Shown here: positions 1 through 3,513 of the stretch, in pieces | How the letters are laid out: the number at the start of each line of letters is the position of its first letter | Numbering within the stretch: the first letter of the stretch is position 1 | NCBI GenBank assembly: GCA_963666515.2 | Contig: OY762897.2 | Location: 3,520,001-3,584,000, forward strand | Direction: 5' to 3' | Source: Candidatus Binatia bacterium | Lineage (GTDB): Bacteria > Desulfobacterota > Binatia > UBA9968 > JAJDTQ01 | DNA length: 64,000 bases | Position numbers and translations under genes: made by a program | Notes under the pieces: generated by a model | Told to the model about the DNA's origin: nothing | What the model saw: only the letters and a program-made list of their open reading frames with translations | Databases searched by the model: none

Positions 1-1466
1 CGCGTGTAGAACATCGCCACCTTGAGGCCGTGTTCGGTCAAGTGGTAGCGGTAGGCGCCGGGGATGCGCTCGATCAGGCCGTGCAGGCGCAGGCGTCTCA
101 GGTCGTAACTCATTCGGCCCGGGCGCATTGGACTGGGATCGAGGCCCAGGAGTGCACCGAGGTGCCCGCGCAGGTCGCGGTTGGAGAAGCCGCGGGCCGA
201 AAGAGTGAACAAGAGCAGGGCCTGCATCAGAGCCTGCACGCGCTCATCGGCGAAGCGCAGGGCCGAGGCGCGTTGTCCGTGGAACTCCAGGCCGCGTTGA
301 TGGCGTTGGAGTTCGTCTTCACCCAGGGCACAGTCGTGGCTGATGGTTTCTATCTGCAACAGACGACGGTTGGCTGTGAAGCCGACCTGGCACAACGCCG
401 CCAGGTTAGACAGCCGCCGGCCCAGGGCGAAGTCATAGGTGTCGTTGACGGTGGTCTCGGTGCGCAGCGCCTGCCCTTCCTTGTGGTACTGCTTGATGCG
501 CGAGTGCTTGTAGTCCACGTGCAAGGAAGGGGTGACGCCTGCGGTGATGACCCGGGTACGGAACCGACCGGGGGTGCGCCGGGTGACCCGGCGCTGGAAG
601 ATCAACTGCACCTGGCTGGGGCGACCGAGATCGAGGTTCTCGCGGATCACGTCCTCGAAAAAGACGCGGCCCGAGGCCGGGCGGTCGAGCACCTGGGTCA
701 GGCTGAACTCCGCTTGCAGGATGGAGATGTCGTAGCGCAGACCGGCGCGACGGTCCTGAGGCGTATACGGATGCGGCAGGCGATCGAACCACTTGCGCGC
801 CAGTCTGTCGATGAAAGCGGCATCGAAGCCTTCGCAGATCTGTTGCAGCGCCTCGGGGTCTCCGCAGCAGCGCACGCCGTTGTCCAAAGCCTCGAACGGG
901 ATGCCGCGCTCGCGCAACTGGCACTTGGCGTACTCGTTGCCGTTGAGGCACAGCTTGCCGTTGTACGGGAAGTAGGTGCAGAACTTGATGAAGAACGGCC
1001 CCGCCTGTTTGTCCACGCAATAGAAATACACATGGTTGACCATCGCGGTAGACGAGACCACCCACGGATAGGTGACCCCGGTGTCCGGGTTCCGGCGCCG
1101 CTCGGTGCGCATCACACGGGCCTTCTCCTGCGCTATCCCGATGTACAAAACCCCTTCGGTTCCCTTGAACCGCCCCAGGTACTCCTGCGTCACCTCGTCC
1201 TTGCGCTGGCCCTTCTTGAAGTGCACCACCTCGATCTGCTCCCGCTCCGCAAAGTCCTTCACCGCCTGCACGAACTCCCGACTCTTGGGCGCCAGCGCCA
1301 CCGTCGACGCAAACCGCTGGCCATGGTGCTTGTGCAGATACCCCACTACCCCGCCCACGCTCTGCAACTGCGGCACATACAGGTTCAAGTACAGGCGATC
1401 CACCGACTCGTATTCCAGCGTCACGTGATCGCGCAATACTTCCGCTACGGTTTGTGGTAGGCTCAT
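1..1466 (-). CDS. Uncharacterised putative transposase/replication-initiator-like protein with C-terminal winged HTH; 3' end runs off the window
   Basis: Manual translation of the minus strand from ATG at 1466 is open to the window edge: MSLPQTVAEVLRDHVTLEYESVDRLYLNLYVPQLQ...GPFFIKFCTYFPYNGKLCLNGNE...SLHVDYKHSRIKQYHKEGQALRTETTVND...MSYDLRRLRLHGLIERIPGAYRYHLTEHG. It is absent from the ORF track because no stop falls in the window. Function is inferred. Confidence 0.85.
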   Translation of the reverse strand, partial: MSLPQTVAEVLRDHVTLEYESVDRLYLNLYVPQLQSVGGVVGYLHKHHGQRFASTVALAPKSREFVQAVKDFAEREQIEVVHFKKGQRKDEVTQEYLGRFKGTEGVLYIGIAQEKARVMRTERRRNPDTGVTYPWVVSSTAMVNHVYFYCVDKQAGPFFIKFCTYFPYNGKLCLNGNEYAKCQLRERGIPFEALDNGVRCCGDPEALQQICEGFDAAFIDRLARKWFDRLPHPYTPQDRRAGLRYDISILQAEFSLTQVLDRPASGRVFFEDVIRENLDLGRPSQVQLIFQRRVTRRTPGRFRTRVITAGVTPSLHVDYKHSRIKQYHKEGQALRTETTVNDTYDFALGRRLSNLAALCQVGFTANRRLLQIETISHDCALGEDELQRHQRGLEFHGQRASALRFADERVQALMQALLLFTLSARGFSNRDLRGHLGALLGLDPSPMRPGRMSYDLRRLRLHGLIERIPGAYRYHLTEHGLKVAMFYT

Positions 1467-1470
1467 GTCC

Positions 1471-1617
1471 GGCTCCGGTTGCTTCGGGCTTTTATGCCCA
1501 TTTGACCCTTTGAGGTCCGACCTTGCAAGGTCCCATGACCAGGGATTCAATCCCTGCTACAAGCGACCGGAGCCAATCCCCTTACCCCCTCGTCGGTCTG
1601 AGGCGAAGCCTCGCTAG
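1471..1617. mobile_element. Structured putative element end/origin: multibranch stem-loop, GCGAAGC hairpin and CTAG
   Basis: 14-bp outer stem 1471-1484/1561-1574 encloses four hairpins (1486-1499, 1504-1517, 1519-1532, 1540-1556). A separate hairpin GAGGC-GAA-GCCTC lies at 1600-1612 and CTAG at 1614-1617. Confidence 0.6.
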
Positions 1618-1704
1618 ATAATTCACCATCATTCATCAGCCCACCCATTGATCTATCGGTTCAGCGATCCGTCCACCGCTCAGGCACCCCGAAAGGAGAC
1701 GCGC

Positions 1705-1974
1705 ATGGCAGCGGCAAAGAAGAAGGCCCCGGCGAAAAAGGCTCCGGCGAAGAAAGCCGCTGCCAGGAAAGCGCCGGCGAAGAAGGCTGCGGCCCGCAAG
1801 GCTCCTGCCAAGAAAGCGCCCGCTAAGAAGGCCGCTGCCAGGAAGGCGCCCGCCAAGAAAGCGCCCGCTAAGAAGGCGCCGGCGAAGAAAGCTCCGGCAA
1901 AGAAGACGGCCTCCCGCAAGGCGCCCGCCAGAAAAGCCGCCGCCAAGAAGAAGGCGCCGGCCCGGAAGCGGTAG
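1705..1974 (+). CDS. Histone H1-like Lys/Ala/Pro-rich DNA-binding protein (89 aa)
   Basis: AAGGAG RBS before ATG 1705; protein is almost entirely [12 protein letters not shown] repeats. Confidence 0.8.
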
Positions 1975-2724: not shown

Positions 2725-2950
2725 CCGCGCGGCTTACGTAACGCGCAGCAACTCCCACAAGCCTCTCGGGCTGACAATCCGCAACCCCTCAACTGGCGGG
2801 GCATCCAGAAGGTCCTTGTCTCCGGATACCAGTCTTGTGTCACCACACTCCGTATATCCCTTAAATGCCTCCTACCAAGGGACGCGATTGTCAAATCAAT
2901 TGTCTAGTGATACGCTTGTTAATACCGTTAAGTGCATCACAGGAGTTCTG

Positions 2951-3232
2951 ATGGCGAAATTACCCCAAATTATACCCGTGACCGACCTGCGGCAGGATGC
3001 GGCGGCCGTGTTGAAGCGAGTCGGCGAATCGCGCGAGCCCTTCGTCATTACCCAGCGCGGCCGGGCGGCGGCGGTGCTGCTGAGTGCGGAAGCGTACCAG
3101 CGTGCGGAGTCTGAACGGCAAATGCTCAGGCTGCTGGCGCAAGGGGAGAAGGAGATCGCCGAGGGGCAGGGTACCGACCTGGACACTGTGCTGGCGGAAG
3201 CCGACGCGCTGCTCGCGGATGAAGATTCGTGA
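2951..3232 (+). CDS. Phd/YefM-family antitoxin
   Basis: AGGAG RBS; IIPVTDLR...PFVITQRGRAAAVLLS motif; overlaps downstream toxin (GTGA). Confidence 0.9.
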   Translation: MAKLPQIIPVTDLRQDAAAVLKRVGESREPFVITQRGRAAAVLLSAEAYQRAESERQMLRLLAQGEKEIAEGQGTDLDTVLAEADALLADEDS

Positions 3233-3513
3233 GCGTCCGATTCACGCCATCCGCCCGGGCGCAATTCCTTGCCGCGATTGCCTATATCAAACGGGACAAC
3301 CCGGAAGCAGCGAGACGGTTTCGGCGACGGGCCGAGGATGTCCTGCGCCGACTCGATAAATTCCCCGACTCCGGCAGAGCCATTCCCGAGTTTCCGGAGG
3401 TGCCCTACCGGGAAGTGATCATCGCTCCGTACCGTTTTTTCTACCGCAAAGAAGACGACAACGTCTGGATCGCGGGCGTGTGGCACGGCGCCCAACTCTC
3501 GGATGAACCCTGA
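3229..3513 (+). CDS. RelE/ParE-family toxin
   Basis: VRFTPSA...FPDSGRAIPE...YREVIIAPYRFFYR...VWHGAQ; translationally coupled to the antitoxin. Confidence 0.9.
   Translation: MSVRFTPSARAQFLAAIAYIKRDNPEAARRFRRRAEDVLRRLDKFPDSGRAIPEFPEVPYREVIIAPYRFFYRKEDDNVWIAGVWHGAQLSDEP

Follow-up and report, generated by a model that had tools for sequence, protein, structure and literature searches.

The stretch of DNA that we analysed (the window) comprises 64,000 nucleotides of the genome of a Candidatus Binatia bacterium (G000; contig OY762897.2, positions 3,520,001 to 3,584,000), and its first 1617 bases are the larger part of an insertion sequence (IS) lying on the minus strand at G000:C1:3519748-3521617. 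A DNA search of the same genome with window positions 1-1640 found this sequence in nine places at 100% identity, together with one degraded relic. The identity shared by the nine copies ends at window 1617/1618 on one side and 254-256 bp before base 1 on the other, and from these limits the element is 1871 bp long, its 3' (right) end of 254 bp preceding window base 1. The flanks of the nine copies are unrelated to one another. Read in the orientation of its gene, the element consists of a 151-nt leader, an open reading frame (ORF) at 152-1759 and a 112-nt tail. Overlapping frames aside, this ORF is the only one of at least 150 residues; it encodes a protein of 535 residues (P0001) and runs off the start of the window, with 488 codons lying inside from an ATG at 1466. 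A 485-residue plus-strand ORF (3..1460) overlaps it and is probably an antisense open frame of the kind common in DNA of 66% G+C. An earlier reading of the window from its letters only (the sequence-only reading) had proposed a mobile element here, with a minus-strand ORF of more than 480 codons, a folded non-coding region upstream of it and an end before host genes resume. The ORF and the folded region are both present, and the right-hand limit at 1617 is the exact boundary of the element, whose last four bases are CTAG.

The element is mobile, as that reading had supposed. Among the 28 species genomes of the genus the P0001 protein is present in G000 only (E ≤ 1e-10), and the element's DNA was not found in 30 relatives, a short fragment in one of them (G016) excepted. 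In the sister species G003 and G011 the sequences flanking the window copy are found in syntenic order, and the site there reads ...GGTAAAGGCTGAACTAGATAGTT... without the element. This empty site (...GGCTGAACTAGATAG...) holds a single CTAG; the occupied site in G000 reads ...GGTAAAGGCTGCA/CTAG(element)CTAG/ATAATT.... The stretch is also present in four sequencing runs, and in one of these (X4) a contig joins position 1246 of the locus (L001) to position 3114 and so leaves out 1867 nt; the joint, ambiguous by 5 nt, coincides exactly with the ends of the element. We read this contig, at a depth of 10.7 compared to about 20 for the flanks, as an empty-site allele in a natural population, a piece of evidence that is weak on its own. 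In runs X1, X2 and X4 the element is covered about 8-12 times as deeply as its flanks, which fits nine copies. An IS is marked by identical copies that end sharply at common limits in unrelated flanks and by polymorphism for presence and absence, and both are found here.

Traces of related DNA were seen as well. At G000:C1:2645461-2645643 (L010) a related element has left a relic of 183 bp with 90-92% identity. An internal deletion in it brings together gene positions 180 and 507, and contigs of runs X1, X2 and X4 contain this joint too (L001 2610 to 2938). In the sister species G016, from which the gene is absent, two short fragments at G016:C208:52810-52885 (93% and 92% identical) correspond to the left end and leader of the element (L001 3089-3117 and 2917-2964).

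All nine copies read flank/CTAG...CTAG/flank, so that the CTAG boundary suspected in the sequence-only reading is present at both ends. Beyond CTAG the flanks have nothing in common except a T after the right-hand CTAG, found in seven of the nine insertions compared to 227 of the 1197 genomic CTAG sites (19%). The two ends of the element have only CTAG in common, and terminal inverted repeats are therefore absent. The target is a rare sequence in this genome: CTAG is about 12-fold under-represented in G000 (1197 observed, about 14,762 expected from base composition), and 18 of the 1197 sites belong to the nine element copies.

Proteins related to P0001 form a large family. An exhaustive search yielded 10,355 representative clusters (50% identity) at E ≤ 1e-3 and 1,214 at E ≤ 1e-30, and at least 8000 scored candidates passed E ≤ 1e-3 in a separate search. 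Among the 120 matches listed there is no Pfam domain, and the source name, where given, is 'hypothetical protein', which is also the label that the Prokaryotic Genome Annotation Pipeline (PGAP) gives to a Caballeronia homologue. Relatives are encoded by 130 of 215 pattern matches in species-representative genomes. The 80 loci kept, which have 55-74% identity, come from Gamma-, Beta- and Alphaproteobacteria, Acidobacteriota, Actinomycetes, Verrucomicrobiota, Myxococcota, Gemmatimonadaceae, Anaerolineae, Armatimonadetes and others, and 28 plasmid records, mostly from Rhodococcus, Burkholderia and Mycobacterium, carry a homologue. Many homologue contigs are just 1.8-2 kb long and some, for example L015, coincide with the element's ends, as collapsed repeats do.

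Leaving aside weak signals of a winged helix-turn-helix (wHTH), P0001 itself matches nothing in Pfam, PHROGs, PADLOC, the sequences of the PDB or NCBIfam, the curated protein-naming models of NCBI. The ESM Atlas returned unnamed clusters only, and a search with the N-terminal domain limited to named entries came back empty. In the open-access literature and bioRxiv we found no description of the family, of its end sequences or of a transposase with a Rep_trans or TATA-binding protein (TBP) fold; ISfinder lay outside that scope. The element is best read as autonomous, with one gene, and as belonging to an undescribed and unclassified IS family, which agrees with the sequence-only reading on the latter point. 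A distant clade, 25-27% identical (L114 at G307:C148 and the plasmid-borne H17), is annotated as ArsR family regulator; the L114 clade keeps D-R, Q-A-E, K-V-Y-D-K and L-R-I-E.

We compared the element ends across the 80 loci, searching for left ends by their hairpin alone, which leaves the preceding bases unfixed by the pattern. This gave 67 distinct left-end hairpin sites, preceded by CTAA in 59 cases, by CCAG-type sequences in five, by CTAG in one (L089, like the window's element) and by other bases in two; 13 of the 80 loci lack such a hairpin on the gene strand, some of them being cut by contig ends. The left-end consensus is CTA-A-CG-AGGC-NNN-GCCT-CAGACCGACGAG. Within the terminal hairpin the loop is variable, and a compensatory GGGGC/GCCCC version exists. 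By hand count the right end closes with ...CTAG in about 50 of 55 loci, at 37-66 nt past the ORF. The right-end core, ACTTGAC...TCAAG(G/A)...CTAG (43-44 nt), holds the inverted repeat CTTGAC/GTCAAG, for which actinobacterial versions have an inner GC hairpin instead. Copies were also compared within eight multi-copy genomes: six groups lose similarity at, or a few bases from, the end motifs on both sides, the limit in the L011/L086 pair fits the motif at the left end only, and the copies of the L017 group are too diverged to tell the boundary. The two ends of the relatives are alike only in CTA, and typical members read flank-CTA/ACG...CTA/G-flank. The simplest account of these junctions would be a CTAG target with cuts after CTA on both sides, the position of the junction within the common CTA being subject to 3-4 nt of ambiguity when placed from sequence.

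Some ends depart from this pattern. At L076 (4575-4700) the 44-nt right-end unit (AAACTTGAC...CTTCTA) is exactly duplicated in tandem, with CTA on both sides. The duplicated unit follows a CTA that overlaps the stop codon and runs to the terminal CTA, and the sister copy L075 has one unit. Such a duplication would arise from aberrant use of a second CTA^A site, slippage being an alternative. At L031 (4600-4810) the right end is broken after ...GATCAAGGAT, and some 110 nt further on the last 20 nt or so of the ORF recur together with the right end; this arrangement may reflect an insertion into the right end. Left ends of the Acidobacteriota type (L050, L053, L058, L060, L064, L065, L067 and L068) have an invariant GCCTCAGACCGT and, about 35 nt later, its perfect complement ACGGTCTGAGGC. 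Pairing of these two segments would form a long alternative hairpin competing with the small terminal hairpin.

The leader is strongly structured when folded as RNA. Window positions 1467-1617 give -65.7 kcal/mol (z = -3.28), with two of 200 shuffles folding as well, and the structure is kept in relatives: RNAalifold on 18 aligned leaders retains the terminal hairpin, an internal GAGCT-CGA-AGCTC hairpin and a long stem. The long stem pairs GGCTCCGGTCG with the region holding GGAG 5' of the ATG. This GGAG is invariant in all 18 aligned leaders, and 12 of the 24 base pairs are changed on both sides. We infer that the leader fold probably occludes the ribosome-binding site, keeping translation of the transposase low, and the leader sequences may double as DNA sites. 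A bridge or guide RNA of the IS110 type was considered for the leader and set aside, since the flanks are alike only in CTAG (plus T in seven of nine) and the protein has no DEDD match. Three sub-threshold Rfam matches on the element were dismissed.

Turning to the protein, AlphaFold2 with a 29-sequence alignment gave a model of the whole chain with a predicted local distance difference test (pLDDT) of 85.2 and a predicted template-modelling score (pTM) of 0.73; the N-terminal 375 residues modelled alone reached 91.9 and 0.89, respectively. In the model of this N-terminal domain DSSP assigns two beta-alpha-beta4-alpha repeats. The first consists of strand 15-30, helices, strands 105-125, 132-152, 156-163 and 170-175 and helix 176-186, the second of strand 246-260, helices, strands 304-307, 314-319, 322-329 and 333-340 and helix 352-374. 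We take this twofold beta-alpha-beta4-alpha arrangement to be the repeat pattern of TBP. The best Foldseek match in BFVD is A0A2N9QVX7 (E 1.2e-4, probability 1.00), and further matches there include a Terrestrivirus TBP (probability 0.99), poxvirus and asfarvirus proteins resembling early transcription factors, and a homologue of B263R. The C-terminal part is modelled as a MarR-like winged helix: Foldseek against the PDB matches it to MarR-type winged helices with probabilities of 0.95-0.99, and in the 27% identical homologue L114 HTH_5 scores 27.2 bits compared to a cut-off of 22. The sequence-only reading had picked out a winged HTH in YDLRRLRLHGLIERIP...YRYHLT, within window 27-269, and these matches agree with it.

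Conservation was scored over 31 sequences, including homologues of 27% and 23% identity. Invariant in all 31 are D23, R24, G156, P167, N175, N196, E253, K325, Y327, R335 and L456; conserved in 30 are E114, Y147, D152, Q251, F290, K329, E337, Y454 and L459. No tyrosine of the N-terminal domain other than Y327 is invariant throughout. In the model K325-x-Y327-x-K329 and R335-x-E337 sit on the last two strands of this domain. A homodimer prediction (residues 1-500, two copies) scored 0.00 and is evidence neither way.

The sequence-only reading had seen in these residues the YxK...RxE pattern of Rep_trans initiators, and that part of its proposal holds, KQYHK...RTE containing K325, Y327, K329, R335 and E337 on adjacent strands. 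In the available portion of Carr 2016 (PMC4797284), the catalytic residues of Rep_trans sit on the inward-facing side of a TBP-like sheet, with those of RepDE distributed over strand 1 (D46), strand 6 (D142), strand 10 (R189, Y191 and K193) and strand 11 (R212 and E214), and D46, D142 and E214 serve as metal ligands. The motifs given in the excerpted text of PMC5714925 are N' (D), I (RxD), II (T/SxY/ExG), III (YxKxxE) and IV (W/LxRxE). By eye, and unscored, their counterparts in P0001 would be D23, Q251-x-E253 for RxD, K325-x-Y327-x-K329-E330 and L334-R335-x-E337, which keep the Rep_trans order and fall on the corresponding strands, with motif II lacking a clear counterpart. The distant homologue L114 reads VKVYDK...LRIETT; proteobacterial Rep_trans read LRVYDK and LRIEV.

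P0001, as modelled, would resemble the Rep_trans/MOB_T enzymes (pT181 RepC, pC221 RepD, RepSTK1, CTXphi RstA, ICEBs1 NicK, Tn916 Orf20), as far as the sources at hand describe them, in having a TBP-like curved-sheet fold class, a strand-borne tyrosine in basic-x-Y-x-K with R-x-E one strand further on, a first-strand aspartate, a DNA-binding HTH C-terminal to the catalytic domain and hairpin-bearing DNA sites. It is unlike them in that no sequence or profile similarity was detected, in its domain of 375 residues, which is about twice as long, and in residing in a multi-copy chromosomal element with two distinct ends. In the portion of the 2017 review available to us (PMC5714925) Rep_trans enzymes are given roles in the replication of plasmids and phages and in conjugative nicking, and transposition is not among them.

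A second comparison is with the archaeal Rep-Arvir initiators (DUF7845, PF25227). According to the accessible sections of PMC13107129, RepSNJ2 has an N-terminal TBP-fold domain (about 300 residues), a MarR-like wHTH and a C-terminal extension, and is structurally related to Rep_trans; its PDB matches are to the wHTH only, its top BFVD match is A0A2N9QVX7, a phycodnavirus TBP, and its catalytic E25, D207, Y283 and E303 overlay D46, D142, Y191 and E214 of RepDE. The predicted P0001 structure has the same layout, the same best BFVD match and, in Foldseek against the PDB, likewise shows its wHTH only. D23, E253, Y327 and E337 come in similar order and spacing to the four RepSNJ2 residues, and the tyrosine stands in KQYHK here versus KHYYM in RepSNJ2, as given in the same sections. 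P0001 differs from Rep-Arvir in lacking a PF25227 match, in being bacterial rather than archaeal and in belonging to a 1.9-kb IS rather than to a replication module of a virus or plasmid. The grounds for a link to Rep_trans are the TBP-like fold class, the topology of the motifs and the architecture of the domains; a Rep_trans-like reading of the protein is plausible and specific, not proven, and homology to Rep_trans is not demonstrated.

On balance we favour the view that this new IS family is moved by a Rep_trans-like, metal-dependent tyrosine nuclease through a single-strand or rolling-circle route. It would then act much as IS200/IS605 or IS91 elements do, with a nuclease from the second, non-HUH class of rolling-circle enzymes. 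What suggests it is the invariant strand tyrosine with its basic residues, the acidic trio, the unlike hairpin ends, the lack of inverted repeats, the fixed tetranucleotide target and the CTA at both junctions. Y327 would be the nucleophile, assisted by K325, K329 and R335, with D23, E253 and E337 holding the metal and the MarR-like winged helix reading the ends. The enzyme would recognise two different, non-inverted, hairpin-bearing ends and cut one strand after CTA at both, the left end at CTA^(G/A)CGAGGC... and the right end at ...TCAAGGAxTCTA^G. Either in the form of a circle or through rolling-circle copying, this strand would then be transferred to a CTAG target that had been cut likewise, and the occupied site would show CTA at both junctions in the absence of a true target duplication or terminal inverted repeats. 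The sequence-only reading had spoken of a rolling-circle transposase of an unclassified IS-like family: the IS family stands, and the rolling-circle route is what we infer by the reasoning above.

No Y1_Tnp, HUH, IS91-type, DDE or DEDD Pfam match was found in P0001 (E ≤ 10), nor does any NCBIfam transposase model match. The transposase classes known to us are DDE, DEDD, HUH, tyrosine recombinases, serine recombinases and Cas1. Whether the element is the founding example of a further mechanistic class, in which a TBP-fold, non-HUH tyrosine nuclease would move single-stranded DNA at CTA^G, we regard as evenly balanced.

Elements of the IS200/IS605 group have no inverted repeats or target duplication, carry unlike subterminal hairpins, use a fixed tetranucleotide and have a related short cleavage-site sequence at both ends. 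The present element resembles them (HUH Y1 TnpA; IS608, ISDra2) in its unlike terminal hairpins, its fixed tetranucleotide and its lack of inverted repeats and, on the favoured model, in having no target duplication and a related short sequence where each end is cleaved. In contrast, TnpA is an HUH enzyme of about 150 residues, whereas P0001 has no HUH motif or Y1_Tnp match and a different predicted fold; the distance from hairpin to proposed cut is 2-8 nt here compared to 10-20 nt in IS200/IS605; and the element has no clear replication-strand bias (six to three). With IS91, ISCR and Helitron elements (HUH Y2), as they appear in the consulted part of PMC5714925, it shares the absence of inverted repeats, a tetranucleotide target beside one end and, on the favoured model, the absence of duplication and a Rep-like transposase. 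Those enzymes, however, have the HUH fold with two tyrosines on a helix, where P0001 has a single invariant tyrosine on a predicted strand, and the target is CTAG rather than the GTTC/CTTG of the IS91 group. The features of the window copy are collected in Table 1.

Table 1. Features of the element copy at the start of the window (window coordinates).
Feature	Position	Strand	Basis
In-window part of the 1871-bp element	1..1617	-	Nine copies identical over exactly this span
Putative transposase ORF, residues 1-488 of the 535-residue P0001	1..1466	-	Only long ORF
N-terminal domain, residues 1-375, presumed catalytic	342..1466	-	AlphaFold2 and BFVD matches
D23 codon, proposed metal ligand, counterpart of RepDE D46	1398..1400	-	Invariant, first strand
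E253 codon, proposed metal ligand, counterpart of RepDE D142	708..710	-	Invariant, first strand of second repeat
KQYHKEGQALRTE: K325-x-Y327-x-K329 and R335-x-E337	456..494	-	On two adjacent strands, with Y327 as proposed nucleophile
MarR/ArsR-like winged helix-turn-helix, roughly residues 400-480	27..269	-	Foldseek, weak wHTH hidden Markov model matches
Left end and 5' leader, 151 nt	1467..1617	-	No ORF of at least 50 residues on gene strand
Terminal hairpin GAGGC-TTC-GCCTC, beginning 2 nt past CTAG	1600..1612	-	Kept in relatives
CTAG of left-end junction, proposed cut after CTA	1614..1617	.	Placement ambiguous by 3-4 nt
GGCTCCGGTC, segment pairing with ribosome-binding region	1565..1575	-	Leader fold
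ACCGGAGCC, with GGAG Shine-Dalgarno-like site 6 nt 5' of ATG, inside long stem	1471..1479	-	Leader fold

Several observations weigh against this model of a Rep_trans-like nuclease. PF02486 and PF25227 are absent at E ≤ 10 from all 29 members searched, and PF02486 matches nothing in the element's own genome. An hhalign comparison with a Rep_trans alignment gave a probability of 0.1%, and permissive local runs gave 0.3% and 0.8%, that alignment being small (seven sequences, four of them close members of the pT181 family and three proteobacterial, from the three of 301 genomes with a match). One of the permissive runs pairs R335/E337 with R212/E214; the other pairs a different region, the first repeat, with the Rep core. 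Foldseek against the PDB, with the whole model or the N-terminal domain, returned nothing at E ≤ 1e-3, with TBPs at E 0.3-0.6, and RepDE and RepSTK1 are not among the PDB matches listed; the BFVD matches have low TM-scores (0.13-0.36). These results give no support to membership of Rep_trans itself, the family whose pattern the sequence-only reading had invoked. The DNA evidence also has its counterpoints. The X4 contig across the empty site has 25 nt on its shorter side and was matched at 90% likeness, and attempts to find a clean empty site for another copy and for a relative of the CTAA type gave none: the surroundings of the L005 copy are non-syntenic, and at the site of the CTAA-type L078 a further 63 and 578 bp are missing from the relative G331, which makes this site unclean. 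With the origin placed near 3.75 Mb and the terminus near 1.4 Mb from GC skew, six copies are co-directional with replication and three are head-on. Single-strand elements of the IS608 type show strict replication-strand bias, and the 6:3 orientation gives no support for strict lagging-strand targeting. Finally, a 3-bp duplication of CTA by some other chemistry would give identical junctions.

This last point belongs to the main rival, an IS with unknown hydrolytic chemistry, which we consider unlikely. Here D23, E114, D152 and E253 would form a DDE-like or new hydrolytic site, staggered cuts at CTAG would duplicate CTA, and the tyrosine would be structural or bind DNA. The arrangement flank-CTA...CTA-G-flank fits such a duplication equally well, E114 and D152 provide further acidic positions, each kept in 30 of 31 sequences, and no statistical link to Rep_trans was found. 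However, cut-and-paste DDE enzymes normally need terminal inverted repeats and the element has none; P0001 has no DDE, DEDD or RNase H-like Pfam match at E ≤ 10, its model is an all-antiparallel TBP-like sheet and not an RNase H fold, and K-x-Y-x-K...R-x-E is kept down to 23% identity.

A variant of the favoured model, to which we give a still smaller likelihood, is that the element is primarily a very small rolling-circle replicon able to integrate: an episome, equipped with a Rep and an origin, that would use CTAG as its insertion site and would not be a transposon confined to chromosomes. Its free circles would be the 1.8-2-kb contigs. The architecture is that of the replication initiators RepSNJ2 and RepD, so far as described in the available parts of PMC13107129 and PMC4797284. 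Element-sized contigs are indeed many and element depth is 8-12 times that of the flanks, but nine chromosomal copies explain a depth ratio of about 9 without a free form, and contigs like L015 run precisely from CTAACG to CTAG and show no terminal overlap. No contig joining right end to left end was among the joints listed, although contigs can miss rare forms, and the viral and plasmid-like collection has one distant relative only. Much less probable again is that P0001 is a DNA-binding regulator or passenger and that the element depends for its movement on an enzyme supplied in trans from a gene outside it. The winged helix is the only family-level sequence signal in the protein, and the distant homologue H17 bears the name of an ArsR family regulator; yet, overlapping frames aside, no other ORF of at least 150 residues lies in the element, the gene travels with the same conserved ends across many phyla, and a conserved N-terminal domain of 375 residues with invariant polar residues exceeds what a regulator needs.

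Around the window copy we noted some further features. The insertion lies within the -10 region of a promoter-like sequence, TTGACT-17-TAGATA in the sister species (window 1618-1974, L001 1225-1253), upstream of a gene for a 108-residue Ala/Lys-repeat (AKKA) protein at window 1648-1974 that is histone H1-like by eye. After the insertion the host -35 and the element end read TTGACT-17-TAGAAT (10 of 12 matches), directed antisense into the element. Further on, window 2816-3513 holds adjacent plus-strand ORFs of 138 and 94 residues with a 4-nt overlap, which by eye resemble a Phd/YefM-type antitoxin and a RelE/ParE-type toxin. The cumulative GC skew of G000:C1 jumps by about 1.2 units at about 3.8-4.0 Mb, far beyond the rest of the chromosome.

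Whatever the chemistry, the element is a real, active and unclassified IS family. If its protein is indeed a Rep_trans-like transposase, a very large 'hypothetical' family (more than 10,000 clusters) would add a class of transposase, and Rep_trans enzymes would have been recruited to transposition as HUH enzymes have in IS200/IS605, IS91 and Helitrons, closing the parallel between two unrelated families of rolling-circle nucleases. For annotation, thousands of 'hypothetical proteins' and many contig breaks of 1.8-2 kb would be explained. As a compact single-protein system with a 4-base target, the element may also hold prospects as a tool. The family would bear, too, on the history of TBP-fold nucleases, for which the bacteria-archaea link was made only in 2026, according to the accessible part of PMC13107129.

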